A stretch of DNA of 64,000 bases from Dictyostelium discoideum (Eukaryota), in the NCBI GenBank assembly GCA_000004695.1, contig CM000153.2, positions 4,608,001-4,672,000 on the forward strand, read 5' to 3'. Each line of letters starts with the position of its first letter. The first letter of the stretch is position 1. This document shows positions 8,198 through 64,000 of the stretch, in pieces. Under the pieces are notes generated by a model. That model was not told the origin of the DNA, did no database searches, and saw nothing but the letters and a program-made list of their open reading frames with translations. Both the position numbers and the translations under genes were made by a program.

Positions 8198-11100
8198 TTA
8201 TTTTTTAATTTTTAAAATTTGTTCTTTAATAATTAAATAAAGTTGAGATAATTGATCAGGATCTGTGATATGAATACAATGTTGAGATCTATAATCTACA
8301 GATTTAATTCTTTGAAGATGTTCAAAGTGTAATAGTAAACCGTCTGGAGTGATTTCACAAGATTTAATATTCTCAAAAGTTGAAGACCATCTGAATGAGT
8401 AGCTATTCTTTATTTGTTTAACAAGGAGAATACGAAGATTTGTTATTAAAGTGATATAATTCTTTACGCCACCATTATTGAAATGAATGATATAGGTATC
8501 GGAATTTTTGAATCTACCCTTGAAAGTTGTTTCCAAAATGTAGTGACCCTCTGATTGTTCGAAATTATATTCAACCAAAAGATTATCGGTACCAAAACAA
8601 CGTGGTGGTCTCATTCTAGTTGTGTCTTTAAAGAGATTAGTTGTATTTCTTATTCCTTCGGTGGTCATTGTAACCAAATCGAATACACCGACTACGGGTT
8701 TGACAGCAACACCAACCACACCCTGCGCCATACCTTTGGCGAAACCTTCAATACTACCTTTGATAGCACCTTCGATTGGTTTGGTTACAACGCCAGTGAC
8801 ACCATCGATTACACCTTTACCAAGACTTTTGAAACCATAGACCACACCTTCACCTAAATGTTTTGCTTTCTTTTGACGTGATCTTTGACGATTTCTAAGG
8901 TATTGATCATCGAATGATAATATTGCAACACCTTTACCAACGGTGTTTGATAGTTTCGATAGAGTATTAAATAAACCATAAACTGAATTTTTCACTAAAC
9001 TAATACTACCTTTTGCTAAACCTTTGCCAAAATCTTTTGGAGAAGTTATTAAACCTAATGCAGGTTCATAAAAGAAATCTTTTACACCAGTACCAATATG
9101 ATTGAATAAACCAACTGGGTTACCAATATTATCTGATGAACCTATCACCTTGTATAATTGATTCAATGATTGCATAGTATAATGTGATTTAATTCTACTT
9201 GCAAATAAACGTTCCGATAAGAATGGATGCTCCAATATCAATGCATTCAAACATAATGGTGTTCTATCTAAACCAAATGAAACACCAACAACTTCTAATA
9301 AAATACCAACGAAATCTGAATTTGAATGACCAACAAATCCATCTCTAACAAATGAAAATGATAATATAACTTTAATTGGATTTAATAATAATAATTTAAT
9401 ATAAATCATTGATTTCTTTTTCTTTTTCTTTGTTAAATTATTATTATTATTATTATTATTTGATGAAATTGCTGAATTTGAAGTTGGTAATAATAATGGA
9501 TCACTTGAAATTGGTTCAATATCATTTAAAAGTTGAATTTTTGATTTTTCATCATTTAATATAAATGGTGAATTAATTGGATTATTTTGAATTTCATTAT
9601 TTTGTTGTTGTGGTTGTTGTTGTTGTGGATTTTGTTGTAATTGTTGATTTTTTTTATGTTTTTTAAAGTTTTTATCTAATTGTTTAATTTTTGTAATTGT
9701 TTCAATGATTGATGCTAAAATACTATCATCCAACATTAAATTAACCTCTTGAATTAATAATGATAAAAGTTCAAAATATTTTAAACCTTTCTTTTCTTCA
9801 TTTTTAATAAAACTAAAATGTAAGAATGGTTTTGGATCTTGTTCTTCATTGTTACTATTATTTGTATGATAAAAGAGGACAGGATAATCAGTATTCATCA
9901 ATTGATTATCAATTTGCATATTGGTTACAATCAATTCAAATCTTGAGAAAATGTTTGATAATGAGAATGATAATGATATATCATTCAATGATAGATAAAT
10001 CAATTCTTTACTATTATGGTCAATTAAGGATACACCAATTCTTGGTAATGATAATTGTAAATCCAATTTACAATTTTCAACAGTTTGTGATAACTCTGAT
10101 GATGAATCATCCTTTGGTTGATCATAAGATAATACCAATACACGTGTTGGTCCATCAACTTTCATAAATGAATAAATTGTATTGGTACCTATTTTAATTG
10201 GTTTAAAATTTTTAATTTTCATAATATTACAATCTAATATTACACTTGATGAAGAGTATGATGATTCAAATGTTGAATGATTTTCAATATATTGATTATT
10301 ATTATTATTATTATCATTATTTATATCATTAGTTGAATTTGTTGTTGTTGTGGTTGTGGTGGTTGTTGTTGAAGAAATTTCAAGACGTAAAATTTTTGTA
10401 CCTAGTAATTCATCCCAAATATAATCAATTGATTGATATGGTGGTAAAATATCAATGATTGAAGTACCAATTTGATAGAATTTAATTGAACGTGGAATTT
10501 GATTTTCAATTCTAAATGGTGAATATTCTGTATCTTGATCATAGAAATGAATACTTGTATGAGTATCATTATCTTTAATATCGACTCTACCAAGATATGG
10601 TTTTGGAACTTCCATTAGGTTTAAGGATCTTTGTTTCACAGTTAACTCTGCTAAATCGTCAATTGTAAAACTACCACTCCAATCATAGTAATCATCATCA
10701 AATTTAATTTGAATTAATTTTTCACCATGTCTATTTGGCCAATGGAATGGTTTTGATTCACCTGGTTCAATTGATTCAATTCTATAGGATTGTCCAATTT
10801 GTCTATATAACATTCTTCTTGAACTTTTATTTATGAAAATATATTGGAAATTAATTGTTACCATCTTTGTACGTTGTAATTTATTTTTACCCATACTAAT
10901 TGATGCTCTAAAATTATATTCTCTATTATCACTATTTGATTTTAATTTACTTAAATTTATTGATGATGATGATGATGGTGGTGATAATGAGTTACTAGTA
11001 TTGTTATTACTATTTCCATTATTTATATTATCATTACTACTATTATTAAAAGTAGATGAATAAAATGGGTCTTGATGATGATTTGTAGAATTATTTGAAT

Positions 11101-16033: not shown

Positions 16034-19000
16034 AGTTGATATAGATGTGTTATCTAAAGAAGATGTTGATAATGATAATGGTGTCATATCACTAATAATT
16101 GATGAATTTGATAAACTATTGATTTCATTATTATTTGGTGTTGATGTAGCTGTTTTATTCTTTTTAAATTCTAAAACTTTTTGAATTACAGGTGTAGCAA
16201 ATTCAAGAATTGATGAAATGAAATTCAATGAAACTGTAATTTGAAATTGTCTAAGAGTTAAATTTAATTCTGAATCGAATGGATGAATATTTTCTTTTGA
16301 TTGAATTGGCATACGTTTAAATAAACTATTCCCACTACCATTACTAGTATTATTATTATTATTACTATTATTACTATTATTATTATCATTATTATTATCA
16401 TTATTATTATTTGATAATGTTGAAAAATTAACTTCTAAAGTATTTATAACAGAATTATCTTTTAATGATAAAATCTGTTCATATTGATTTGGATCTTGAA
16501 TAATTTTATCAATTGGAATTGTAAAAGATAATTGATGTAATTGATTAAAGAATAAATAGATTTTACCAATTGATATTATACTTTGTTTATAACCATCAAA
16601 CCCAATATCAGATTTAAATTTAGTATCTTTAATATAAAATAATGAACCAATCTCTTCAATATAGAATCTAACTGAATCAATTTTTAAATTTAATTTCAAT
16701 TTCATTCTACCATTACTACCACCATAATTCAATTTATTAATTGGTGCTTCTTCTATTGGTAATATCTCCTCCACTTGATTAATTTGTTGATTTGGTAATT
16801 TATTTACTAATCTATTTAAATTTGAATTTGATTGTTGTTGTTGTTGTTGTTGCTGTTGTTGCTGTTGTTGTTGAGAAGATGGAATAAACTTTTTAAATGG
16901 TGAAGTTGTTGATTTTCTTAGTGGTGACATTAATGATAATTTTGGTGATGGTGGCTTACTATTTATAGATTTTTGTAGTTCTTCATCTTGTTGTTGTTCT
17001 TGTTCTTGTTGTTGTTCTTGTTTAATTTTTAAATTTAAAAATTCAGATTTAGTTGAATTAATAATAAGCATTAAATTTGAAACTCTATCCATTAAGAACA
17101 TGATATCATTTTGATTAATTTTAAAAACCACATCACATAAATTAACATCCAATACTAATCTTGGTGGTGGTAATACACCAATACCATTTTGATTATCTTT
17201 CCAAACTAGAATACTTGTCATTTCAACATTTAATCTTAAATTATTTAAAACTAAATTCTCTTTAAATCTATTATTGTTGAATTGAATAGTTTTTAAATTT
17301 ACATTTGATAAATTAAAATGAAATAATGATAAAGTTTGATTTGAAATGAATTCATTATTAATTTTTAATAAACCTAAATCAATAATAAATTGATTCCTAG
17401 ATAATTGATTCTCTGGTATAATTAAAAGTGGTGCTTCCATTCTTGCATTAATTTTAATACCTTTTTTCTTTTTATATTTTTCCATATTACTACCATCATT
17501 AATAGTAGTTGTTGTAGTTAATTCTTTATTAGTTTTCTTTTGCTGTTTAATTAAACCAGGTATAAATTGGAATAAATCTAAAATGAAATCTTTTAAAACA
17601 TTTAAAAAGTTTGGTAAAAGTGAAATTTGAAATCTATTTATATCAGCATCTAATAATACTAATGGCAATGCAATTTTACTAATACGTTCATATTTAAAAG
17701 TTAAAAGTAAATTTGAATCATCATAATTTGATAAAACTTTGTTATATAAATTGGTATTGAAATCATTTACAAGGTCATATAATTCAAATCCGTCTACAAA
17801 GAAATCTAAAATTAATCTGTTTGGTAATTTAGTGATTTCAAGATCAACTTCTTTCATATCGAATCTACTAATTATTTCTTCTTTATATTGTTGATTGTTT
17901 TGTTGAGTAGCCACAGTATTTGTTGTAGTATTAATTAATTTTGGTAACATTAATATTGATTTTATACCTTTAACAGAAATATAAATTAAAACTTTATTCA
18001 CAGTGAATCTCGATGGTGGTCTTCTCATTCTTTGTTCTTCTAATTGACGTTGAACTGATTGAGTTACCTTTCTATTCACAACGACAATCATTTGAATGAT
18101 TTCAATTATATTACCAGTAATTTGCGGTATTAAATTACAATAAGATGTTGATAAATTAATTTTAATATCTGATAATTTTTCATATGTTGGTACAAGTTGT
18201 TTATTATGAAAAATTGTACCATAAATAATTGGTTTCTTTTCTTGTTCTTCTTCTTCTTGTTCATCATCTTCAGTATTACCTTCGTTTTGTTCATTTTCTT
18301 CTTTTCTCTTATTTTTAAAATATTTTGGAGATTTAAATTTATTAAAATTTGAAGAGATGACAATATCATCATCAGTATATGATGGATGACCATTTGTACC
18401 TCCTCTTTGATTTTCATTTGTACATTTATAAATATTACAATCATTGAATGCATAATCACCAATTACAGTTGTATCTCTTTGATTACTTTTCTCAACTTTT
18501 AAATTACTAACCAATTGATCCGATTTAATATGAAGTATTGGTTCTACATCAATAGTTGATAAATTAAATAAATTTGTAACAATTATATTTATATCATCAA
18601 ATACAACATGACTTGAAAATACAATTTCACGTTTTCTTATAATTTCATTTTCTTTTCCTATTCCTATTCCTGTTGATTCTGTTAAATTATTAACCATTGT
18701 AGATAAATTTGAATTTGATGTTGATAGCCATTGTCTTTTAGATTTTGATGGTGAATCTGTATTATTATTATTACTACTATTACCATTTTCAATATCTATA
18801 TGATTATTTTGTAAAGTTGATGGTTTATTATTTAAAGAATTAAAAGTTGGTGAAGTTGTTGAATTTGATCTAATTTTAAATTGAAATGATGAAATGAAAG
18901 CTTCTTCAACTCTTTGAATTTCAGACATTAATTGAAATACGAATAAACGAATTTGATAAAATGAAAATGGTGAGAAATAAAATCTAACAAATGGAAAATT

Positions 19001-47552: not shown

Positions 47553-48260
47553 TTATATTATTATTAACAATAATATTATTGTTAATAATAATAATAATAA
47601 ATTTAATTTATTAATTTTTTTAAAAAATAATGATGGCGGTGATGATATTGATGTTGATAAACTATTAAATTGAAAATGCCTAATTTCTTTTAAAATTATT
47701 GAATTTGATTTAAATGATTTTATATTTCTATTATCACATGCTTTACAATTTTCATTACATGATTTAAAATAAATTATATCACCCTCTTCTGAACAATAAT
47801 ATTTTTTATTACCTTCAAGACAAGTATTATTTGAAAATGATTCAACTGTTGTAACTTCTTTTGATAATTTTATAACATAATTACATAATCCATCCAATAG
47901 TATTGGGGAGGTTGTATTTGAAATATTTATAATTACTGATGAATTATCATCATATTTAATACACTTATTTAAGTCATAGAATATTATTGGATTGTAATTA
48001 TCGCAATGGGAATCTTGACTAATGAATATGTTGGGTGAGTATCCTAATCTTTCTATTTCACCTTTATTTATATCACCAACTTTCATATATAACCCATCCT
48101 TTTGACATGGTGTTATGGTTTTTATAAATGTTGCATTACCTTTACATTCGAAATTATTATTTTCATATACAAAAAATGAAATCTTATATCCATTTATTTT
48201 TATAACAAATATTAATAATAATAATATAATATTATATATAAAATTTATTTTAATCATCAT
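47553..48260 (-). CDS. Cys-rich type I membrane/secreted protein (signal peptide, 12+ Cys, C-terminal TM). A paralog of the gene at 62086-62910.
   Basis: A 235-aa ORF with N-terminal MMIKINFIYNIILLLLIFVIKING, a CKG...C...C pattern shared with the 62086 ORF, and a C-terminal LLLLLLTIILLLIII. Confidence 0.45.
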   Translation of the reverse strand: MMIKINFIYNIILLLLIFVIKINGYKISFFVYENNNFECKGNATFIKTITPCQKDGLYMKVGDINKGEIERLGYSPNIFISQDSHCDNYNPIIFYDLNKCIKYDDNSSVIINISNTTSPILLDGLCNYVIKLSKEVTTVESFSNNTCLEGNKKYYCSEEGDIIYFKSCNENCKACDNRNIKSFKSNSIILKEIRHFQFNSLSTSISSPPSLFFKKINKLNLLLLLLTIILLLIII

Positions 48261-49115: not shown

Positions 49116-49529
49116 ATGTTTTCTCCCAGGGATAGTTTCAATTTCTTTGATGACCCAACTTTTGGTATTAACCTCCAACCTCTCACAACGACGTATGTTG
49201 AAGTGGAAGATTTGGAAAATGATATCAAAAGATTATCAAGTCTGTTCTATGAAGAGACTGTTCATCTTAGTTATAAATTACCCAATTCTTTAAAGAAGTC
49301 TCGAAATTTCTTACAACCATACCTTAATATTAAACCTATTAAACATTCAAGACAAAACTATACACAATTAACAAACTATATAGACCAATCAAAAGACTTA
49401 GTTCAAGAGTGTAAGTCTTGTTTTAGTGATAATGTTGGTGTCAATGATATATTAAGGGATATACTGCGTGATATGGATAGGTTAAAGGTACATTATTGTT
49501 CAGATGGTGGTATATTTTCATCTTTATAG
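49116..49529 (+). CDS. A-family small protein, copy 1 (137 aa). Unrecognised, tandemly amplified family.
   Basis: MFSPRDSFNFFDDPTFGINLQPLTTTYVEVEDLENDIKR...HYCSDGGIFSSL. The ORF is maintained in 4 diverged copies with in-frame indels and clustered non-synonymous changes. Confidence 0.55.
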   Translation: MFSPRDSFNFFDDPTFGINLQPLTTTYVEVEDLENDIKRLSSLFYEETVHLSYKLPNSLKKSRNFLQPYLNIKPIKHSRQNYTQLTNYIDQSKDLVQECKSCFSDNVGVNDILRDILRDMDRLKVHYCSDGGIFSSL

Positions 49530-49852
49530 TTAATACTATAAAAATGGATTTATGCAATCATATTTTAATTTTTACTATTTATATATTCTTTATTTCATTC
49601 TTTTTTTTTTTTCTCTTTCTCTTTTATTTTTGTTTTTTTTCTTTTGTGTAACAAAAATACAAACTTCCAAAACTAAAAAAAAGTAAAAAAACAAAATCAA
49701 ACAAAATCAAACAAAATCAAACAAATAATTTAAAAATCAAATACAAAATCAAAAACAAAGGTAACAGAAAAAATGAAAAAAAAAACAAAATGAAATAAAA
49801 AATATATAAATAATAAAAAAAAAGTTTATCAAACAATACAAATTAAAAATAT

Positions 49853-49914
49853 CCTTCCTTCTAATCAACTTTCAATGTATGAATATACATTGAAGGTTGA
49901 TTAGAAGGGAGGAT
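49853..49914. repeat. Long perfect or near-perfect hairpin / inverted-repeat element (about 24-bp stem, 4-nt loop), with a second short hairpin just downstream. Copies recur in other units.
   Basis: ccttctaatcaactttcaatgtat gaat atacattgaaggttgattagaagg, with one G-T mismatch. It is followed by caatgtatcggatacatt (a 7-bp stem with a G bulge in the right arm). The same element sits at 52299-52360 and, diverged, at 59523-59580. Confidence 0.7.
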
Positions 49915-50467
49915 ATTCAAATCAAATCCCAATGTATCGGATACATTCCTTAGTTAGAATGAAGGGTTTTCTGTTTAGTTTAAAAGAAAAGTGAAATTCT
50001 GTTGCAATATCGATATCTGGTGTCTTAGAGTCAAACTATTTTCTCAATGGCATTCCAATCAATTTCCAAAATACATTCCAGTTTTTCAATCAAAGAAATT
50101 CTATAAATAAACCATTTTAATCCTCTTAAAAAATATTGTTTTGATTTTTTTTTTTTTTTTTTTGATTTTTTTTTTTTTTTAGTTAAATTACTCCTATTAT
50201 TTAAAAAATATTTTTTAACTTCCTTTTATCATTTTTAAAATAATAATTATACCAAAATGTATTTTTCATTTTATAATAGTGAAAATAAAAAATCATTATT
50301 GATGGAATATATTTTAAAAAATGAAAGGACAAAACTAATCCATTTTTTTTTTTTTTTTTTAAGAATATTGGTTTTTTTTTTTTTTTTTTAATCTTATTCA
50401 TAATAAATAGAATAAAATAATAAATACTAATATCTTTTTTTTTTAATTATATCTTTATATTTTTTAA

Positions 50468-50718
50468 AATTAAATGGTGAACTAATAACATTGCAAATCA
50501 AGGCAAATGCAAATAATGTATATGAAAGTGGTGATCAATGTGGTAATTCAACATTTACTTCATTTAATTACAATAATAATAATGTTAAAACATTTATTAC
50601 AATGTCACCTCATCCTGGTAATGTAGTTGAATTTTATAAATATTATACAAATTTTAAAATTAATGGAATTAATTTCAACAATTTCACAAAATGTAAATTA
50701 AATAAAAAAATTAAATAA
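50468..50718 (+). pseudogene. 5' fragment of the B-family (Asn-rich membrane glycoprotein) gene, unit 1.
   Basis: It encodes ...LNGELITLQIKANANNVYESGDQCGNSTFTSFNYNNNNVKTFITMSPHPGNVVEFYKYYTNFKINGINFNNFT, then breaks off into (AAAAT)n and an antisense fragment of the 47553 gene. Confidence 0.5.
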
Positions 50719-50749
50719 AATAATAATAATAATATAATAAAATAAAATT

Positions 50750-50822
50750 AAATAAAATAAAATAAAATAAAATAAAATAAAATAAAATAAAATAAAATAA
50801 AATAAAATAAAATAAAATAAAA
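50750..50822. repeat. (AAAAT)n microsatellite.
   Basis: Direct reading: aaataaaataaaat... about 14 copies. Confidence 0.9.
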
Positions 50823-51531
50823 TAATACAATTGTAACTTCTTTTGATAATTTTATAGCATAAATTAAAATTAAAATAATTCTTGAAAAAAAAAAAATTAA
50901 ATAAATATATAAATAAATAAATAAAAATAAAATTGAAAATAAAAAGTGTATCTGTGTCTATTATAAAAATTAATTTTATCAATCTGTAAAAATATTTTTA
51001 ATCAATTTTAAAACTCATAATTAACAACAGATAAAAAATTAAGATATGCATATATATAAAAAAAAAATTATTATTATTATTAAATAAAAGATAACAAATT
51101 AACCTTCTATTTATTACTATATAAAATTTTTTATTTTACATGAATAATTGGTTTTTTTTTTTTTTTTTTTTATTTTTTTTTTTTTTTGTTTAATATCAAG
51201 ATTGGTGAATTTAAAAATAAAAATAAAAATTTAAAAAAAATTAAAAAAAAACACCTCACTCATTTTTTTGGGTATGGAAATGAGATTTAATCTTATTATT
51301 TTTTTTAATTATTTTTTATTTTTATTTAAAAAAATTAAATTTGGGAAAAAAAAAAAAATTAAGCACCACATTAAGGGTTTTTTTTTTTTTTTTTTTTTAA
51401 TTCTTTTTTTATTTTTATCCTTTTTGAACACTAAATTAAATTAATTATTATTTTTATATATATATATATATATATCCAACACACACACCATTTTTAAAAA
51501 ATAACATTTCTTTTTTCCTCTCCACCACGCA

Positions 51532-51945
51532 ATGTTTTCTCCCAGGGATAGTTTCAATTTCTTTGATGACCCAACTTTTGGTATTAACCTCCAACCTCTC
51601 ACAACGACGTATGTTGAAGTGGAAGATTTGGAAAATGATATCAAAAGATTATCAAGTCTGTTCTATGAAGAGACTGTTCATCTTAGTTATAAATTACCCA
51701 ATTCTTTAAAGAAGTCTCGAAATTTCTTACAACCATACCTTAATATTAAACCTATTAAACATTCAAGACAAAACTATACACAATTAACAAACTCTATTGA
51801 CTATGCAAAAGTCTTTGTTCAAGAGTGTACGGCATGTTTTGATGATAATGTTGGTGTCAATAATTTATTAAGGGATATACTGCGTGGTATGGATAGTTTA
51901 AAGGTGCATTATTGTTCAGATGGTGGTATATTTTCATCTTTATAG
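51532..51945 (+). CDS. A-family small protein, copy 2 (137 aa).
   Basis: Near-identical to copy 1 through residue 85, then diverges (TNSIDYAKVFVQECTACFDDNVGVNNLLRDILRGMDSLKVHYCSDGGIFSSL). Confidence 0.55.
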   Translation: MFSPRDSFNFFDDPTFGINLQPLTTTYVEVEDLENDIKRLSSLFYEETVHLSYKLPNSLKKSRNFLQPYLNIKPIKHSRQNYTQLTNSIDYAKVFVQECTACFDDNVGVNNLLRDILRGMDSLKVHYCSDGGIFSSL

Positions 51946-52298
51946 TTAACACTATAAAAATGGATTTATGCAATCATATTTTAATTTTTACTATTTATAT
52001 ATTCTTTATTTCATTCTTTTTTTTTTTTTCTCTCTTTTATTTTTGTTTTTTTTTGTTTTTTTTTCTTTTGTATATAACAAAAATACAAACTTCCAAAACT
52101 AAAAAAAAGTAAAAAAACAAAATCAAACAAAATCAAACAAAATCAAACAAAATCAAACAAAAAATTTAAAAATCAAATACAAAATCAAAAACAAAGGTAA
52201 CAGAAAAATTGAAAAAAAAAAAAAAAAAAAAAAAAAAATGAAATAAAAATATATAAATAATAAAAAAAAGTTTATCAAACAAAACAAATTAAAAATAT

Positions 52299-52360
52299 CC
52301 TTCCTTCTAATCAACTTTCAATGTATGAATATACATTGAAGGTTGATTAGAAGGGAGGAT
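52299..52360. repeat. Hairpin element, unit-2 copy.
   Basis: Identical sequence to 49853-49914. Confidence 0.7.
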
Positions 52361-52592
52361 ATTCAAATCAAATCCCAATGTATCGGATACATTCCTTAGT
52401 TAGAATGAAGGGTTTTCTGTTTAGTTTAAAAGAAAAGTGAAATTCTGTTGCAATATCGATATCTGGTGTCTTAGAGTCAAACTATTTTCTCAATGGCATT
52501 CCAATCAATTTCCAAAATGCATTCTAGTTTTTCAATCAAAGAAATTCTATAAATAAACCATTTTAATCCTCTTAAAAAATATTGTTTTGATT

Positions 52593-52635
<43 letters not shown>

Positions 52636-52920
52636 TTCAATTACTCCTATTATTAAAAAAATATTTTTTAACTTCCTTTTATCAATTTTAAAATAATAAT
52701 TATACCAAAATGCATTTTTCATTTTATATAAGTGAAAATAAATAATCATTATTCATGGATTATATTTTAAAAAATGAAAGGACAAAACTAATCCATTTTT
52801 TTTTTTATTTTTTAAAATTTTGTTTTTTTTTTTTTCATCTTATTCATAATAAATAGAATAAAATAATAAATACTAATATCTTTTTTTTTTTTTTTTTTTA
52901 ATTTTAGCTTTAAATTTTTT

Positions 52921-53382
52921 AAAATTAAATGGTGAACTAATAACATTGCAAATCAATGCAAATGGAAATAATGTATATGAAAGTGGTGATCAATGTGGTA
53001 ATTCAACATTTACTTATAATTCAATAAATGCAATTTCTTATTTTGAAACAATTAAAGTATATAATCAAACCTCAAAAATTTAAATTTATCCACATTGAAA
53101 TTACTTTAGATGACTCTTTATAAAATTGGTAATCCATTAATACTTTTTCAAAATAAAATTGAAATTTCGCCTTTAAATCAAAAATCTAAAAATGTAATCA
53201 TTGATGATTCTTCAATTAATAACAATAATAATAATAATAATACTAAAACATTTATTACAATGTCACCTCCTCCTGGTAATGTAGTTGAATCTTATAAATC
53301 ATATACAATTTTTAAAATTAATGGAATTAATTTCAACAATTTAACATTTACAATTGTAACTTTTGATAATTTTATAGCATAA
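52921..53382 (+). pseudogene. 5' fragment of the B-family gene, unit 2, with internal stop(s).
   Basis: KLNGELITLQINANGNNVYESGDQCGNSTFTYNSINAISYFETIKVYNQTSKI* ... MTLYKIGNPLILFQNKIEISPLNQKSKNVIIDDSSINNNN...KTFITMSPPPGNVVESYKSYTIFKINGINFNNLTFTIVTFDNFIA*. Confidence 0.5.
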
Positions 53383-54032
53383 ATTAAAATAAAAATAATA
53401 TTTGAAAAAAAAAATTAAATAAATATATAAATAAATAAATAAAAATAAAAATAAAAATAAAAAAAAAAGTGTATGTGTGTCTATTTTAAAAAATTATTTT
53501 TATCGCTCTATAAAAATATTTTTAATTCATTCCAACTCATAATTAACAACAGATAAAAAATTAAGATATGTATATATATAAAAAAAAAAATTATTATTTT
53601 TATTTAAATAATAGATAACAAATTAACCTCATTTTTATTACTATATAACAGTAAAAAATAATATTAACACTTTTTTTTTAAAAAAAAAAAAAAAAAAAAA
53701 ATAATAAAAAAAAAAACTGATCACTTAATTTTAGGTGAAAAAAAAAAATAAAAAATAAAAAAAAATAAAAAAAAAATATATATTTTGTTAAGGAATTTAC
53801 AAACAACAAAAAAAATTAATTTTTTTTTTTTTTTCTATTTTTTTTTTTATTTTTTTTATTTTTTTTATATTCACCTAAAATTTTTTTTTTTTTCTCATTT
53901 TTTTTTTTTTTTTTTTTTTTTTATAACACTATAATTAAATTAATAATAATAAAATAATAAAATAATTTAATTGTTTTTTTATATATCAAAAACACATATA
54001 TAATATTTTAAAACTCAAACTTTTCTACTACA

Positions 54033-54341
54033 ATGTCTTCTCAAGAAGGTGACCTTCCCCCTCTCAGCGATTACCCAGATGCAACTAAAGTGGATGAATT
54101 ATGGTGTAAAATCATTGCCCAATCAACTACTCCCCTTGAAATAACCAATTTATTGAACCAGTTTTCCCATTTCTTAAAGCCATGCCAAGTTAACTCACTT
54201 TCAAAGAACCCACAAACGAAAAAATTACTAGAACATTTAGAAAAGTGTAGGGGCCCATGTAATAATGATAATACCAACAATTTATTAAGCGATATGATAC
54301 AGAATGTCCAAAATTTAATTATATTATTAATGATCCCATAA
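54033..54341 (+). CDS. Divergent small ORF occupying the A-gene slot of unit 3 (102 aa). A possible distant A-family member.
   Basis: The ORF MSSQEGDLPPLSDYPDATKVDELW... is followed by the same conserved downstream block (tatagttaactactataaatatggatttatgcaatcac) as the A genes. Its C-terminal NLLSDMIQNVQNL resembles the A-family NNLLRDILRDMDRL. Confidence 0.3.
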   Translation: MSSQEGDLPPLSDYPDATKVDELWCKIIAQSTTPLEITNLLNQFSHFLKPCQVNSLSKNPQTKKLLEHLEKCRGPCNNDNTNNLLSDMIQNVQNLIILLMIP

Positions 54342-54901
54342 AGCAATAATAATTATATCATGTAATGGTATATTTTCAACTTTATAGTTAACTACTATAA
54401 ATATGGATTTATGCAATCACTATAGTTTAATTTTTATTATTTAAATTTTATTTATATAATATTTATTTCATTCTTTTTTCTTTGTTAACAAAAATACAAA
54501 CATCCCACACAATACAAAATCAAAAACAAAGATAAAAGAAAAACAAAAAAAATGAAATAAATAATATATAAATAATAAAAAATTAAATAATAAAAGTCAA
54601 ACAAATTAAAAATATGCTTTGATACATTCGTTTGTTACAAGGAGGGATTTTCTGTTAAATTTCGTTGCAATATCTGGTACCTTAGAGTCAAACTATTTTC
54701 TTGGTGTCATTCTAGTCAATTACCTAAATGTTTCCTGTTTCAATCAAAGAAATTCTCTAAATAAATTTAAAAACCTTACAAAAACTTTTTTTTTTTTTTT
54801 TTTTTTTTTATTTTATTTTATTTTTTTTTTTAATTTTAATTATCCATAATAATCAATCAAAACATTAAAAAAAAAAAAATAAAAAAAAATAAAATGATAA
54901 C

Positions 54902-55198
54902 ATGTATATATATATTTTTTTAATTTTAACTTTTTATTTTTTAAAATTAAATGGTGAACTAATAACATTGCAAATCAATGCAAATGGAAATAATGTATAT
55001 AAAAGTGGTGATCAAAGTGGTAATTCAGCATTTAAATGTAATTCAATAAATGATGCAATTTCTTATTTTGAAACAATTAAAGTATATAATCAATCATTGA
55101 TGGCACCGATTAATAACAATAATAATACTATTAAAATATTTATAACAATATCACCTCTCCTCCTCTTGGTAATATGGTTGAATAAAAATAAAAAATAA
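54902..55198 (+). pseudogene. 5' fragment of the B-family gene, unit 3 (signal peptide plus first domain only).
   Basis: MYIYIFLILTFYFLKLNGELITLQINANGNNVYKSGDQSGNSAFKCNSINDAISYFETIKVYNQSLMAPINNNNNTIKIFITISP.... Confidence 0.45.
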
Positions 55199-55745
55199 AA
55201 AGTGGTTGTGTATCAATCTTAAAATTTTATTTTATCACTCTGTAAAAATATTTTTAATTCATTCCAAAAATCATAATTAACCACAGATAAAAAAAATATA
55301 TTGTTTAAATAATAGATATTTTATTACCAATTAACCTCACTTATTTTGCTATATAAAAAGTGTTGATTTATATTATTACTTTAAAAAAAAAAAATAATAA
55401 CATTGGGATTTAATTTTATTTTTTACTCCAAAAAATTATCATTATTTTTTTTTTTTTTTTTTTTATAATATTAAATTAAAAAAAATAAATAAAATTAAAA
55501 AAACATGTTCTCTTATTTTTTTGGGTTAAAATGAAAATGAGATTTAATTTAATTATTTTTTTTTTCCACTCCCAAAATTTTTTAATTTTTTTTTATTTTT
55601 TTCATTTTTAAATTTTTTTTTTTTAGACACCATTTTTTTTTTTTTTCATTCCTTTTTTTATTTTCATCCATTTTGCACTATAATTATTATAATTATTTTT
55701 AAACACACACACTATTTTAAACATTTCTTTCCTTTCTTCCACGCA

Positions 55746-56138
55746 ATGTTTTCTACCTGGAATTTCTTTGATGACCCTCCTGGTATTAACCTCGAACCTC
55801 TCACAGCGACCTACGTCGAAGTGGAAGGGATAGAGAATGATATCAAGAGAGGATCGAGTCAATTCTATGAAGATACTGTTCATCTTTGTTTTAAATTACC
55901 CAGGTTTTTAAAGAAATCTCGCAATTTCTTACAGCCGTACCTTGATATTAAACATTCGAGACTAAACTATACACAATTAACAAACTCTATAGACTATTCA
56001 AAAGTCTTTGTTGAAGAGTGTATAGCATGTTTTGGTGATAATGTTGGGGTCAATAATTTATTAAAGAATATTCTGCGTGATATGGATAGGCTAAAGGTAC
56101 ATTATTGTTCAGATGGTGGTATATTTTCATCTTTATAG
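55746..56138 (+). CDS. A-family small protein, copy 3 (130 aa, with in-frame deletions relative to copies 1 and 2).
   Basis: MFSTWNFFDDPPGINLEPLTATYVEVEGIENDIKR...HYCSDGGIFSSL. Confidence 0.55.
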   Translation: MFSTWNFFDDPPGINLEPLTATYVEVEGIENDIKRGSSQFYEDTVHLCFKLPRFLKKSRNFLQPYLDIKHSRLNYTQLTNSIDYSKVFVEECIACFGDNVGVNNLLKNILRDMDRLKVHYCSDGGIFSSL

Positions 56139-56228
56139 TTAAAACTATAAAAATGGGTTTATACAATCATAGTTTAATTTTTATTCTTTATTATTACTAT
56201 TTCATTCTCTTTTTTTTACTTTCACCTT

Positions 56229-56285
<57 letters not shown>

Positions 56286-56439
56286 TTACAAAATACAAAC
56301 ATCACACACAACAAAAAATAACAAAAAACCAAAACAAAATCAAACAAAATCAAACAAAATCAAATATGAAGGGTAAAAGAAAAAATGAAAAAAAAAAAAA
56401 ATAATCAAAAAAGTCAAACTATACAAATTAATAATATCC

Positions 56440-57560
56440 TTCCTTCTAACCAACCTTCATTGATATATCCGACGATAATACACCGAATGTTCAACAGAAG
56501 GAAGGAATTCAAATCTACCTCAATGTATCCTACGAGGATACATTGCGAGCTCCCAAGGATATTCAAATCTATCTCATTAGAATGAAGGATATTCAAATCT
56601 ACCCCAATGTATCCTATGAGGATACATTGCGAGCCCCCAAGGATATTCAAATCTATCTTCAATGAATCCGATGGATAATATTGGACACTCATTAGAATGA
56701 AGGATATTCAAATCAACCCCAATGTATCCTACGAGGATACATTGCGAGCCCCAAGGATATTCAAATCTATCTTCAAAGTATCCAATTGATAATACCTTGA
56801 AAACTAATTAGAATGAAGGATATTCGCCCCAATCTTCAATGTATCCGATAGGATACATTGAACCCTCTCAAGAAGGATATTCAATCTATCCTCAATGTAT
56901 CCAATTGATAATACCTTGAACACTCATTAGAATGAGGGATATTCAAATAAACCTTCGATGTATCCGATAGGATACATTGAACCCTCACCGAAATGATATT
57001 CAAATCTATCTTCAATATATCCAATGGATAATATATTGAACACTCAGTAGAAGGAAGGATATTCAAATCAACCTTCAATGTATCTGATACATTGAACCCT
57101 TATCAGAAGGATATTCAGTCTATATTCAATGTATCCGATGGATAATACATTGAACACTCAATAGAAGGAAGGATATTCATATCAACCGGTCAGATACATT
57201 GAACACTCATTAGAATGAAGGATATTCAAATCAATCTCCAATGTATGGGATAAATTCATCGGTTAGAAGGAAGGATATTTAATCAACCTTCAATGTATTC
57301 GATCGGATACATTTAACGCTCACTAGAAAGAAGGATATTCAAATCAATATCCAATGCATCCCATCGGCATACAGAACGCTCACTAGAGAAGGATATTCAA
57401 ATCAACCTCCAATGTATTGGATACATTCGTTGATTTGGGTCCTTCTCTAGTGAGCGTTCAATGTATGCCGATGGGATGCACTGAACGCTGATTAGAAGGA
57501 AGGATATTCAAATCAATGCCAATGTATGGAATACATTCATTGGTTAGAAGGAAGGATTTA
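56440..57560. repeat. Satellite-like array of about 20 tandem, hairpin-forming 52-63 bp units. There are two alternating subtypes, giving a higher-order repeat of about 115 bp, and a palindromic inversion centre near 57430. The array is derived from the single hairpin element of the other units.
   Basis: Units begin with ggatattcaaatc and contain the palindrome caatgtatcc...ggatacattg. The subtypes are ...ccccaatgtatcctacgaggatacattgcgagccccaa and ...tcttcaatgtatccaattgataataccttgaacactcattagaatgaa. Near 57372-57458 the arms acgctcactagagaagga / tccttctctagtgagcgt form a larger inverted repeat. GC content is markedly above local background. Confidence 0.8.
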
Positions 57561-57949
57561 AAAACAGAAAAAACTAAAAAAAGAAAAGTGAAATTCCATG
57601 TGCCTTGGAGTCAAACAATTTTCCCATTGAAATTCCAGTCAATTACCAAAATGCATTGCTGTTTCAATAAAGAAATTCTCTAAATAAATTTCAATACCAT
57701 TTTAATCCTCTTAATCAAAACAATAGTTTTTTTTTTTTTTTTAAATTAGTCCTTTTAGATTTTATTAAATAAAAAATATTTTTTTAACATCCATTTAATA
57801 ATAATAATTAAACCAAACGTATTTTTCATCATTAATAATAAAAAATGAAAAGACTATTTTTTTTTTTTATTATTATTCATATTAAATAGTATAAAATAAT
57901 AAATAATAATATCTTTTTTTTTTTAATTTTTAACTTTTTATTTTTTATA

Positions 57950-58400
57950 ATTAAATGGTGAACTAATAACATTGCAAATCAATGCAAATGGAAATAATAT
58001 GAAAGTGGTGACCAATGTGGTTATTCAACATTTACATGTAATTCAATAATTAATGCAATTTCTTATTTTAAAAAAATTAAAGTATATAATCAATCCTCAG
58101 AAATTTAAATTTATCAACCATTGAAATTACTTTTAGATGATTGTATATATAAAATTGGTAATCAATAATATTTTTTCAATATAATATTGAAATTTTGCCT
58201 TTAAATCAAAAATCTAAAAATGTAATCATTAATGATTCTTCAATTAATAACAATAATAATAGTATTAAAACATTTATTATAATATCACCTCCTGGTAATG
58301 TGGTTGAATCTTATACAATTTTTTAAACTAGTGGAAATAAATTCAACAATTTCACATTTACAATTGTAACTTCTTTAAATAATTTTTAACATAATTACAT
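57950..58400 (+). pseudogene. Degenerate 5' fragment of the B-family gene, unit 4, fused to an antisense fragment of the 47553 gene.
   Basis: attaaatggtgaactaataacattgcaaatcaatgcaaatggaaataat... with frameshifts. It ends in ataattacataatccatccaatagtattgg, the reverse complement of the 47553 CDS segment encoding GLCNYVIKLSKEVTTV. Confidence 0.4.
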
Positions 58401-58464
58401 AATCCATCCAATAGTATTGGTGGGGTTGTATTTGAAATATTTATTTTTTACATGTATAAAATTG

Positions 58465-58523
<59 letters not shown>

Positions 58524-58772
58524 CTAGTATGAATTTAAAATAAAAATTAAAAGCAATTAAATTAAAAAATCACTTCTCTCATTTTTTTAAGTTTTGTGTA
58601 AAATATCTCGAGATTTAATCTAATTATTTATTTTTTTTTTTTTTTTTTTTAATTTTTAAATTTTTTTTTTTTTTTTTTTCACCTTTAAATTTGATTTTTT
58701 TTTTTCATTCTCTTTGAATAAGACCTTACTGTTTTAATTTTAATATTTCTTTTTTTCCCATCCACCACGGCA

Positions 58773-59159
58773 ATGTTTTCTCCCGGGGATAGTTTCAATT
58801 TCTATGATGACCCAACTCTTGGTATTAACCTCCAACCTCTCACAACGACGTATGTTGAAGTGGAAGATATAGAGAATGATATCAAGAGAGTATCAAGTAT
58901 GTTCTATGAGGACACTGTTCTTCTTAGTTATAAATTACCCGAGCATTTAAAGAAATCACGTAATTTCTTACAGCCATACCTTGATATTAAACATTCAAAA
59001 TTAAACTATACACAACTAACAAACTCTATTGACTTTGCAAAAGTCTTTGTTAAAGAAGGTATAGCTTGTTTTGGTGATAATGTTGGTATCAATAATTTGT
59101 TAGAAGATATATTGCGTGATATGGATAGGTTAAAGGTATATTATATTGAAATAGTGTAG
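58773..59159 (+). CDS. A-family small protein, copy 4 (128 aa, altered C-terminus).
   Basis: MFSPGDSFNFYDDPTLGINLQPLTTTYVEVEDIENDIKR...DMDRLKVYYIEIV*. Confidence 0.5.
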   Translation: MFSPGDSFNFYDDPTLGINLQPLTTTYVEVEDIENDIKRVSSMFYEDTVLLSYKLPEHLKKSRNFLQPYLDIKHSKLNYTQLTNSIDFAKVFVKEGIACFGDNVGINNLLEDILRDMDRLKVYYIEIV

Positions 59160-59431
59160 CATATTTTCATTTTTATAGTTAACATTATAAAAATGGATTT
59201 ATGCAACAATATTTTAATTTTTATTATTATTTTAATTTTTATATTATTTATTTCATTCTTTTTTTTTCTTCTTTTTTTTCTTTATTTTTTTCTTTTTTTT
59301 GTTTGTACTTCCCACACAACAACAAAAAAAAAAAAAACAAAAACAAAAAAATAACAAAAGATAACCAAACAAAATCAAACAAAATCAAACAAAATCAAAT
59401 AAAATCAAAAACAAAGGTAATAGAAAAAATG

Positions 59432-59468
<37 letters not shown>

Positions 59469-59522
59469 AAATATATAATATATAAATAATAAAAAAAGTT
59501 TATCAAACAATATTAAAAATAT

Positions 59523-59580
59523 ACTTCCTTCTAATCAAACTTCAATGTTTGGATACATTGAAGGTTGATCAGAAGGAAGA
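59523..59580. repeat. Hairpin element, unit-5 copy (diverged).
   Basis: cttccttctaatcaaacttcaatgtttggatacattgaaggttgatcagaagg. Confidence 0.6.
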
Positions 59581-60006
59581 ATATTCAAATCCCAATGTAT
59601 CGGATACATTCCTTGGTTAGAATGAAGGGTTTTCTGTTTATTTTAAAGAAAAGCGAAATTCTGTGGCAATATCGACATCAGGTGCCTTAGAGTCAAACTA
59701 TTTTTTCAATAACATTCCAATCAATTTTCAAAATGCATTCCAGTTTTTCAATCAAGGAAATCCCCTAAAATAAATTTAAATACCATTTTAATACATAAAA
59801 ACTGTAACTTTTTTTTTTTTTTTTTTTTTTTTTAGTTCAATTACTCCTATTTTATTAAAAAATATTTTTTAACTTTCTTTTACCATACCAAATGTATTTT
59901 TCATTTTAAATGTAATGAAAATCATTATTTGAAGAATATATTTTAAAAAATGAAAGGACAAAACTTACCCAGATTTTTTTTTTTTGGATTTTCAAGAAAA
60001 AAAATA

Positions 60007-60037
<31 letters not shown>

Positions 60038-60475
60038 GAGTAAACTTTGTCTTTTTAAATTTTATTAAATAAAAAAATATTTTTTTAACATCTATTTAAA
60101 TAATAATTAAACCAAATTTATTTTTCATCATTAATAATAAAAAATAATTATTATTCAAACAATTTATTTTAAAATAAAATGGAAAGACGATTTTTTTTGA
60201 GGTTTTATAGAAAACCTTCATTTTCTTGAAACACACAATTTTATTTATTTTTATTTTTATATTTTTAAATTTTTTTTTTTTGGGTTTTAAAGAAAAACCA
60301 TCTTTTTCCCAATAACTACAATTTTATTTATTTTTATTTTTATTTTTTTTAATTTTTTTTTTGGATATTTTCTTAAAAACAGACCATTTTGATTTTATTT
60401 TCTATTTTTTTTTTTTTTTTTTTATTTTAATCATTCGATCGAAACATTAAAAAAAAAAAAAAAAAAAATTATAAA

Positions 60476-61993
60476 ATGATAAAATATATTTTTCCATTTT
60501 TTTTAATTTTAACTTTTTATTTTTTAAAATTAAATGGTGAACTAATAACATTGCAAATCAATGCAAATGGAAACAATGTATATAAAAGTGGTGATCAGTG
60601 TGGTAACTCAACATTTACATGTAATTCAATAAATGATGCAATTTCTTATTTTGAAACAATTAAAGTATACAATTAATCATCAGAAATTCAAATTTATCAA
60701 CCATTGAAATTACTTTTAGATGATGGTATTTATAAAATTGAAAATCAATTAATACTTTTTGAATATAATATTGAAATTTCACCTTTAAATCTAAACTCTA
60801 AAAATGTAACCATCGATGGTACCTCAATTTATAACAATAATAATAATAATATTAAAACATTTATTACAATATCACCTCCTACAGGTAATATAGTTGAATC
60901 CTATAAATCCCATAGCATTTTTAAAATTAATGGAATTAATTTCAATAATTTCACATTTACAATAATTTACATTTATAAAACTTATTTAAATGTAGTAGGA
61001 TCATTTGAAAATTGTAATTTTAATAATTTTAAAAGTGAATTTCCAATGTTTTACCTAATTAATAATAATAATAATAACATAATAAGTAATTTATATTATA
61101 ATATAAATTCATCATTTGCTTTAACGAATTGTTCAATGATCAGTAATTCAAATATAGGTTATAATTCATCTATAATTAATAGTAAAAAATTCAGTGTACT
61201 TATTTATCGATCAAAATTCCAATCAATTAATGAATGTAATAATTTTGGTTACTTTTATGATAGTTCTCGATTAACAATTTATAATAGTTCAATAAATAAT
61301 AATAATTGTAAAATAATTTTCAATATAAATAAAATTAATAAGTTAGATGTATTCAATACAAAATTTGAAAATAATAATGGAACAATATTCAATATTAAAT
61401 TTAATTCAAATGAAGGTTTAATTTCAATTAAAAATAGTAGCTTTATCAATAATTATGGTGGTAGTATTATTAATTTAGAATCAAATAATAATATTCCTTT
61501 TGAAAATTTAAAAAAAAATCCACAACTATTTAGAGACTCTACATTTTTTAATAATTCATTCAATGGAAATGGAAGTATAATTAATTCAATTGGTGCTTAT
61601 TTTATTGTTTCTGGTGAATTTGAAAATAATAAAGCATTAAATCACCAAGGTGATTTATTTTATTTACAAGATAGTTATTGTTTAATAGAAGATTCAAAAA
61701 TAAATCAAGTTAATAATTTACCAAGTGGTAAAGGTTCAATAATTTATTTACAAAAATCAGAATTAGAAATATCAAGTGGTAATTTCAAACTAGATGGTTC
61801 ACTTGTTTGTAATTCTTCAAAAATAAAACTTTTACGAAATACAATTGTTTTTAAACCTACTATTGACTGTCAAAATTGTACCTTTAATAACAATAATTAT
61901 TGTGAACTTAATTTTGGAATAAAAAATAAAATATCAATTCTTTTAAATTTAATAATATTATTACTATTATTATTATTATCACTATCAATATAA
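60476..61993 (+). CDS. Full-length B-family gene: an Asn-rich, heavily N-glycosylated type I membrane protein with beta-helix-like (PbH1-type) repeats and a C-terminal TM. The single reading frame is interrupted by one in-frame TAA at 60674-60676, so it is a possible recent pseudogene or a sequencing error.
   Basis: The ORF-track ORFs 60476-60676 and 60704-61993 are in the same frame (codon starts 2 mod 3), separated by one taa. The downstream part has no ATG for 112 codons. The product has a signal peptide MIKYIFPFFLILTFYFLKLNG, then repeats such as NSSFINNYGGSIINLESNNN and FENNKALNHQGDLFYLQDS, and a C-terminal [20 protein letters not shown]. Confidence 0.5.
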
Positions 61994-62085: not shown

Positions 62086-62910
62086 TCAAAGTGATATTAA
62101 TAAAATTAATAATGATACAATTGTTGAAATAATATTAATATTTAAAAAAGAACTAGATGAATCAAAGTCATTTGATGATGATGATGATGATAATGAAGAT
62201 AATTGAGAATCAAAAGAAAATGAAGGAGTTGTATAATTTACAGTTTGATTGATTGGATTTGAATCAGTGAGGAAATTAAACATTTTTAAGGATTTGAAAT
62301 TATCACAATTTGTACTATTTGAAGGATATGTTTGTTTTAAAATACATGATTGCGGTTTACAATCACTTGTTAAACATTCATAAACATTAATTGTCATACC
62401 ATCTTTACCAATACATTCTCTCCTTTGATATCTAATTGTTGTACTATTATTACTATTATCATTTGAAGACGTTTCTAATTTTAATGGATCATTACCAAAA
62501 TTCATTTTAATACATGTATTATTTCTATAAGAATTTATGAAATAATTTTCACAATTAAAATAATTTACTTCATTACAATAGGTATCTATATTTCTTGGAT
62601 TAAACTCTGAATCGTTTATGATATATTGATATGATGTACCATCAGTGTTTAAATAACATTGTTTGGTTTGTACAAATTCTGTTATATCTCGTTCGATTGA
62701 ACATTGATCTTGATTATTAACTTTTGTGATTGCTAATTTACCACCTGCTCCTTTTTGAAAGTATGAATATCTTGAACAATTTGTACTACCAATTGTAAAT
62801 AATAATTCTCCTTTACATAATATATTACTATATTTAATTATATGTACTTCAAATCCAATTATTTTTTTAATTAAAAATATAATAAATATAATTTTTATTA
62901 TTAATTTCAT
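62086..62910 (-). CDS. Cys-rich type I membrane protein with a Ser-rich juxtamembrane region. A paralog of the gene at 47553-48260.
   Basis: A 274-aa ORF with signal MKLIIKIIFIIFLIKKIIG, a CKG....C...C pattern, and a C-terminal TM IISTIVSLLILLISL. Confidence 0.45.
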   Translation of the reverse strand: MKLIIKIIFIIFLIKKIIGFEVHIIKYSNILCKGELLFTIGSTNCSRYSYFQKGAGGKLAITKVNNQDQCSIERDITEFVQTKQCYLNTDGTSYQYIINDSEFNPRNIDTYCNEVNYFNCENYFINSYRNNTCIKMNFGNDPLKLETSSNDNSNNSTTIRYQRRECIGKDGMTINVYECLTSDCKPQSCILKQTYPSNSTNCDNFKSLKMFNFLTDSNPINQTVNYTTPSFSFDSQLSSLSSSSSSNDFDSSSSFLNINIISTIVSLLILLISL

Positions 62911-63834: not shown

Positions 63835-63859
63835 GTAATAAATTTCATACAAACAACAA

Positions 63860-63958
63860 TAAACAAACAAACAAACAAACAAACAAACAAACAAACAAAC
63901 AAACAAACAAACAAACAAACAAACAAACAAACAAACAAACAAACAAACAAACAAACAA
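63860..63958. repeat. (CAAA)n microsatellite (about 25 copies), intronic or intergenic.
   Basis: Direct reading. It generates the spurious minus-strand ORF 63685-63954 (FVCL repeats). Confidence 0.9.
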
Positions 63959-64000
63959 AAAGATATTGAAAGAGAGAAACAATTGGAAATAATAATAATA

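Follow-up and report, generated by a model that had tools for sequence, protein, structure and literature searches.

What is a long, near-perfect hairpin that stands between the copies of a small gene on Dictyostelium discoideum chromosome 4, and why does it occur there more than once? The hairpin lies in a stretch of 64,000 nucleotides (the window, to which positions refer unless another assembly is named). An earlier note on this DNA had described it as a 24-bp-stem element, present once per repeat unit, progenitor of a satellite array and resembling MITE termini or structured-RNA genes. The inverted repeat itself was readily recovered: the 24-nt arm at 49857-49880 has its complement at 49885-49908, with 1 mismatch. 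The pairing described for the stem holds, whereas its length does not, as the stem extends over 33 bp (49848-49917) and forms a 70-nt palindrome that is well above chance. The arm has 6 matches in the window versus 0 expected (100 shuffles), and the matches form three inverted pairs; its recurrence was found as described, with pairs at 52303/52331 and, diverged, at 59527/59553. All pairs of the copy 1 stem form on the + strand, two of them as G.U, and these two become A.C on the - strand. The 64 kb contain 98 close inverted repeats and, among the matches listed, this hairpin is the only long one that is not made of an A-run opposite a T-run. Structure prediction gave a strong fold both for RNA (-56 kcal/mol for a 151-nt context, z = -9.6) and for DNA (-29 kcal/mol for an 80-nt stretch around the hairpin, z = -12.3). 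The second hairpin reported directly downstream (49930-49947) is present as well, effectively with 7 bp and a 3-nt loop and not with the 8-bp stem and 1-nt loop as written. The 55-nt monomer that contains it has a z of only -0.6, with 53 of 200 shuffles folding equally well. The features of the locus are listed in Table 1.

Table 1. Positions of the hairpin copies, related repeats and neighbouring features in the window.
Feature	Position	Strand	Description
137-aa orphan gene (DDB_G0286587 family)	49116-49529	+	More copies at 51532-51945, 55746-56138 and 58773-59159
T-rich run ending in G	49620-49647	+	Similar to the published start motif of pri-miRNAs (hypothetical); hairpin follows ~200 nt downstream
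Complex-sequence island	49823-50110		28.5% GC in an 11-15% GC spacer; contains both monomers and the conserved block
Hairpin copy 1 (monomer 1)	49848-49917		33-nt arms, loop GAAT (4 nt)
Monomer 2	49912-49966		GATATTCAAATC..CAATGTATC-G-GATACATT..TTAGAATGAAGG; weak 7-bp second hairpin inside, 49931-49947
Conserved block	49993-50032		GAAATTCTGTTGCAATATCGATATCTGGTGTCTTAGAGTC; kept even in unit X
Hairpin copy 2	52294-52363		Identical to copy 1; sits in unit 2
Unit X junction	54610-54629		AAATATGCTTT/GATACATTC at 54620/54621; 82 bp missing
Decayed head copy of the hairpin	56433-56506		Start of the unit 3 array; DNA fold only -11 kcal/mol
Satellite array	56433-57560		~19 monomers of 49-63 bp; 119-bp higher-order period; 36% GC
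126-nt palindrome	57355-57480		Inverted monomer pair at the array 3' end; -93 kcal/mol, z = -15
Hairpin copy of unit 4	59518-59585		Three internal mismatches, widened loop

The hairpin recurs because the whole gene-plus-spacer unit has been duplicated in tandem. Each repeat unit is 2.4-3 kb long and consists of a gene of the DDB_G0286587 family, a spacer and a fragment of DDB_G0286791. On the + strand, the order is small orphan gene, T-rich tract, (CAAAATCAAA)n, A-rich tract, 290-bp island, T-runs and 5' fragment of DDB_G0286791. Alignment of the units places the hairpin between the (CAAAATCAAA)n tract and the GAAATTCTG...GAGTC block (the conserved block in Table 1), as had been described. The window contains four such units (genes at 49116, 51532, 55746 and 58773) and a fifth that we refer to as unit X; units 1 and 2 are 96-100% identical and represent a recent duplicate. 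We compared these units with the equivalent locus in two other D. discoideum assemblies (L001 and L002), so that three assemblies were covered in all. Seven units from the three assemblies align continuously over gene and spacer on both sides of the hairpin, for more than 1.3 kb, and such long homologous flanks on both sides of the copies identify a tandem segmental duplication. The alignments show that the unit was duplicated in tandem, three times before the three assemblies split and again in the AX4-like lineage. The number of units differs, with four plus unit X in the window (49116-60475) and three each in L001 (10001-17281) and L002 (4825-11668). The hairpin is not strictly present once per repeat unit: among the five units of the window, unit 3 has a decayed head copy followed by the array, and unit X is without the hairpin. 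A single copy per unit is moreover what segmental duplication is expected to produce and therefore holds no information on mobility. In the last unit of L001 and L002, ~35 bp upstream of the hairpin (AAAAAAGTTTATCAAAYAATACAAATTAAAAATA) are tandemly doubled (L001 ~16100-16170, L002 ~10690-10760), and the conserved block has a 22-bp deletion.

The genes of the locus are known from other D. discoideum annotations. The ORF at 49116-49529 is 100% identical to ACTFIT_005332 (D. discoideum, GCA_054883475.1, CM142510.1, near 846 kb), the ORF at 51532-51945 is 100% identical to AX4 DDB_G0286587 over 126 residues, and the ORF at 60704-61993 is 100% identical to AX4 DDB_G0286791. These identities mark the window as chromosome 4 of an AX4-like D. 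discoideum. Homologues of the orphan gene were found in D. discoideum only, and paralogues of DDB_G0286791, which might have carried the upstream island, were absent from the protein collection searched. Substitutions in the orphan gene are spread equally over codon positions 1, 2 and 3, both between paralogues and between assemblies. Its frames are open in all ten copies seen despite this equal change, which suggests relaxed or diversifying selection. The tandem array of units is bracketed by two genes in the same orientation (47553-48260 and 62086-62910, both on the - strand) with hydrophobic N- and C-termini; a 274-aa product of this pair has a sub-threshold match to the counting-factor-associated CfaA_B_C family. 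Two further repeats lie downstream of the units: an 83-bp tandem duplication (60191-60362; 2.1 copies, 85% matches) upstream of the intact DDB_G0286791, and an (ACAA)28 microsatellite (63849-63959) that reads as a repeated FVCL peptide in a mechanical ORF on the - strand.

Unit 3 contains a satellite array, and the description of the hairpin as the progenitor of this array stands as far as homology is concerned. Repeat family D18 unites the monomer 2 region of units 1, 2 and 4 with the array monomers, and a BLAST search with the hairpin as query matched throughout the array. The hairpin, the second hairpin and the array monomers have one layout in common (GATATTC..AATCAA..CAATGTATC-loop-GATACATTG..TTAGAAGGAAG). 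When the sequence is cut at each GATATTC, a single monomer plan appears: GATATTC-AAATC-AAC-(C/T)TCAATGTATC, loop, GATACATTGAA...TTAGAAGGAAG. Monomer 1 corresponds to the hairpin, its left half having become the exact complement of its right half, and monomer 2 corresponds to the second hairpin. The unit 3 array is bracketed by the decayed monomer 1 and by monomer 2 (~57503). The direction from seed to array is what we infer from the two-monomer state, which is found in two paralogue types and in three assemblies. The same monomers span 1263 bp head to tail in the window, 1597 bp in L001 and 1390 bp in L002. Tandem Repeats Finder gave periods of 57-58 and 119 bp for the window, versus 49, 118-120 and 197 bp for L001 and L002. 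As the spans and higher-order periods differ among the three assemblies, the array is a variable-number tandem repeat. With its head-to-tail monomers in the range of 10-100 bp, its variable length and the homology between hairpin and monomers, it belongs to the minisatellites. The inverted monomer pair close to its 3' end is common to all three assemblies (L001 14023-14116; L002 8646-8739), and the palindrome that it forms is a stronger hairpin than the one first flagged.

Unit X has a spacer that is homologous to those of the other units and retains the conserved block. Its gene slot is occupied by an unrelated 102-aa ORF (54033-54341), for which the L001 and L002 loci have no counterpart. 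The 82 bp missing from this spacer comprise most of the hairpin and the left half of monomer 2. The left end of the missing segment falls within the left arm and its right end within monomer 2, and since these ends have neither inverted repeats nor a duplication, there is no transposon footprint. Compared with unit 1, which like unit 4 has the hairpin, the spacer of unit X shows 83-89% identity and that of unit 4 shows 81-97% in the same stretches, so that unit X is no more distant from unit 1 than unit 4 is. Unit X would therefore more likely have lost the hairpin than represent an ancestral empty site. The DDB_G0286791 fragment of unit X (unit at 54033-55745) is 96% identical to the first exon of the intact gene, which suggests that this unit is of mosaic or recombinant origin.

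We compared the divergence of the hairpin with that of the neighbouring gene. Hairpin identity is 88-90% between paralogue types (85-89% for the gene) and 93-96% between assemblies (92% for the gene), and the stem diverges at the rate of codon third positions. This baseline is a weak one: few sequences were compared, units are likely to undergo gene conversion with one another, and diversifying selection may act on the yardstick gene. Between the three D. discoideum assemblies, flanking genes show a difference of 1-9%, which looks large for a single species; given that difference, the divergence of the hairpin is ordinary. In a comparison of ten hairpin copies (seven distinct sequences), 0 of the 33 stem pairs had changed on both sides, 4 had changed to G.U only and 13 varied only by breaking, and the covariation score of the stem equalled that of shuffles. 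In unit-1-type copies the better fold is that of the + strand, in unit-3/4-type copies that of the - strand (by a small margin in the unit 4 copy), with no consistent bias. We thus see no sign that pairing, or one strand in particular, has been selected for. One observation counts against a neutral reading: in unit-1-type stems, all four independent transitions lead to G.U on the + strand (p ~0.06).

Two further observations, on the composition and layout of the island, also count against a neutral reading. The window has ~22% GC, and raised GC in the D. discoideum genome is often a mark of functional or foreign sequence. The island has about twice as much GC as the DNA around it and as the usual intergenic DNA of D. 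discoideum (on average 13.8% GC; PMC11014262). Like the island, the array with its 36% GC is surrounded by spacer of 11-15% GC. Furthermore, the T-rich run ending in G upstream of the hairpin and the AATAAA with which the island ends (50106) make a layout that is compatible with a + strand transcript of ~480 nt. Equivalent islands are found at 52269-52556 and about 59500-59770. Conservation between units resumes exactly at AAAAAAG/TTTATC (49822/49823), and a AAAGGTAACAG motif (49757-49767) is conserved within the otherwise unalignable A-rich tract; together, these look like the splice sites of a ~65-nt intron in the hypothetical + strand transcript. No homologues of the island were found, and the origin of its complex sequence stays odd. 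Six-frame translations of island and array, searched as a pseudo-protein, gave no match at E <= 10, in a search too insensitive to return the known overlaps of 26 aa. A coding role of the island was considered and rejected, as no frame is conserved, the unit 3 copies of L001 and L002 have the 22-bp deletion and unit 4 has frame-shifting indels.

These results bear on five explanations of the hairpin. The one that we favour, and consider somewhat more probable than all others together, is that of a neutral, unstable palindromic minisatellite seed that was carried along by tandem segmental duplication. A MITE or foldback transposon that inserted once, before the units were duplicated, would explain the long inverted arms and the presence or absence of 82 bp in the other units versus unit X, and D. 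discoideum has a precedent in thug-S, a repetitive DNA transposon that is a source of miRNAs. We nevertheless hold such an insertion to be highly improbable. The 82-bp segment is not a discrete insert bounded by terminal inverted repeats or by a target-site duplication, its ends lying inside the left arm and monomer 2, and only 4 nt separate the arms. No target-site duplication was seen at the hairpin either, where the flanks are ..AATTAAA and CAAATCAA.. and the sole symmetry is that of the palindrome itself. The resemblance to MITE termini does not extend to the genomic context, as all copies share homologous flanks inside one segmental duplication: there are none at non-homologous places in the 64 kb, and every copy in the L001 and L002 loci is likewise in duplicated context. 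Metagenome contigs gave 0 matches to the two-arm pattern and 6 single chance matches to the monomer pattern, none with the palindrome, and the published miRNA lists searched had no match to the hairpin sequence. A role as cis-regulatory DNA, with palindrome and monomers as sites of a dimeric transcription factor for DDB_G0286791 or the upstream orphan gene and the array as an amplified site cluster, strikes us as very unlikely. The island does lie ~600-950 bp upstream of the DDB_G0286791 start codon, directly ahead of a T-run of the kind common in Dictyostelium promoters; its GC content exceeds that of the neighbouring DNA, and each arm of the hairpin has spaced TTGA/TCAA motifs; the TTGA motifs presumably resemble STAT sites. 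However, most units have only truncated DDB_G0286791 fragments, unit X has the block without the hairpin, and divergence is at the neutral level. Least credible of all is that the hairpin belongs to a terminal coding exon of DDB_G0286587, as the AX4 reference model has it. In that model, a predicted ~340-nt intron leads into hairpin copy 2, and the last 26 residues of the protein, which ends in VYQTKQIKNILPSNQLSMYEYTLKVD, are the translation of 52270-52350 through the hairpin (also 49824-49904); the gene models of the two other assemblies splice into the island as well. Against this, most copies have an unspliced C-terminus in common (GGIFSSL or GGIFPSL), the predicted donor GTATAT reads GCATAT in unit-4-type copies, the three models differ in donors or acceptors, and loop indels shift the frame in the unit 3 copies of L001 and L002. 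The C-terminus of DDB_G0286587 in the AX4 reference is thus probably false and an annotation artefact.

The remaining explanation is that of a young hairpin-RNA or miRNA-like precursor. A Pol II transcript of the + strand would run from the end of the T-run (~49647) to a point beyond the AATAAA, its 33-bp stem would be cut by DrnB or DrnA into ~21-nt RNAs, and the array and the 126-nt palindrome would be further sources of dsRNA. We regard this as unlikely, with evidence of several kinds on both sides. On the + strand, units 1 and 2 and unit 1 of L002 have a fully paired stem, and the hairpin falls within the limits used to recognise D. discoideum miRNA hairpins (< -0.2 kcal/mol/nt, >= 60% duplex pairing), as an 80-nt stretch spanning it folds at -48.4 kcal/mol with 33/33 positions paired. 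At -0.6 to -0.7 kcal/mol/nt, its energy is inside the range tabulated for these hairpins. The published pri-miRNA start motif in D. discoideum is a T-rich run ending in G, and with such a run upstream and the transcript size predicted here, the locus resembles pri-mir-1176 and pri-mir-7098. Most miRNAs of D. discoideum lie between genes, and a single one is shared with D. firmibasis. Rfam searches (E <= 1) matched only generic miRNA-precursor models, on both strands and below the gathering threshold, the best match to the hairpin being MIR6288 (42.9 bits versus a threshold of 74). On the other side, neither the arms nor their central 9-mers nor the core of the short hairpin turned up in Liao 2018, Meier 2016 or Edelbroek 2024 (miRNA tables and supplements); the last of these covers the 2012 miRNA set indirectly, and ddi-miR-1176-5p, taken as a positive control, was found in its supplement. 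The locus is ~0.85 Mb from one end of chromosome 4, and none of the chromosome-4 miRNA loci listed there (0.74, 1.30, 1.71 and 2.38 Mb) is near it. The start motif occurs 96 times in the 64-kb window, the 70-nt hairpin is shorter than the reported miRNA loci of 101-180 nt, and no complementary target was found elsewhere in the window. The hairpin is decayed or deleted in other units, and its stem has 0 compensatory changes and no consistent strand bias. A structured-RNA gene, to which the earlier note had likened the element, is therefore not supported, given the lack of compensatory pairs, the sub-threshold Rfam matches and its absence from the D. discoideum miRNA lists searched. A tRNA scan of the sequence found none. 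A Class I RNA or other DUSE-driven ncRNA was considered and rejected, as there was no Rfam match and no [AT]CCCA[CT]AA upstream by eye. Full-text literature searches for the arm sequences, DDB_G0286587 and Dictyostelium palindromic tandem repeats returned nothing relevant.

Returning to the palindromic minisatellite seed, the hairpin would be the first of two adjacent monomers of a locus-specific, hairpin-forming minisatellite of ~57 bp. These monomers lie in the GC-richer spacer island between the DDB_G0286587-family orphan gene and the 5' end of DDB_G0286791 on chromosome 4. The palindrome and its relatives were, we infer, made and remodelled at the DNA level, for which template switching or inverted duplication, slippage across hairpin-forming repeats and unequal exchange are likely routes. 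Such remodelling would explain the seed of two monomers and, in one unit, its growth to ~19 monomers with a length that varies among strains, as well as the 126-nt inverted-pair palindrome and the loss of 82 bp with the hairpin in unit X. Most likely, the hairpin has no role that depends on its sequence.

As it stands, the locus is of small import: it illustrates how a palindromic seed, segmental duplication and slippage may give rise to hairpins and a strain-variable satellite in an AT-rich genome, and the array could be used as a length marker for strain typing. A bolder reading, distinctly unlikely on present evidence, is that a hairpin-RNA gene (proto-miRNA or endo-siRNA) is being born here from a palindromic minisatellite, with the + strand transcript diced. 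If this were true, the stages of such a birth would lie side by side, from the 33-bp seed, a decaying copy and the 19-monomer expansion to the 126-nt super-palindrome and a deletion. Transcription and dicing of the locus would then offer a rare view of the birth of a small-RNA gene in Amoebozoa, where almost all miRNAs are species-specific.

Several known systems resemble this locus in part. The inverted-duplication proto-miRNA and hpRNA loci of plants and animals likewise have a long, near-perfect hairpin that stems from a recent local inverted duplication; unlike these, the arms described here match no gene in the window, which leaves no evident target. With MITEs and thug-S, the hairpin has in common that it is short and non-coding with inverted arms that fold back. 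It differs from them in having neither a target-site duplication nor an internal region, in not being dispersed within the window, the L001 and L002 loci or the metagenome contigs, and in that segmental duplication explains its copies. The miRNA precursors of D. discoideum (ddi-mir-1176, -1177, -1178 to -1186, -7097 and others; Liao 2018, Meier 2016, Edelbroek 2024) are similarly intergenic and lineage-specific, with a strong hairpin, a similar energy per nucleotide and an upstream T-rich run ending in G, the last a motif that is frequent in the window. Unlike these, the present hairpin is 70 nt long (reported loci, 101-180 nt) with an essentially perfect stem, is in no list searched, and belongs to a decaying multi-copy family within one locus. 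Palindromic minisatellites or VNTRs likewise have head-to-tail monomers of ~50-60 bp that are each an imperfect palindrome, a higher-order period, a strain-variable length, local inversion and deletion, and neutral drift. Compared with these, the present locus keeps a two-monomer seed in paralogues beside the expanded array, and one of its monomers is an unusually long, near-perfect palindrome of 33 bp.
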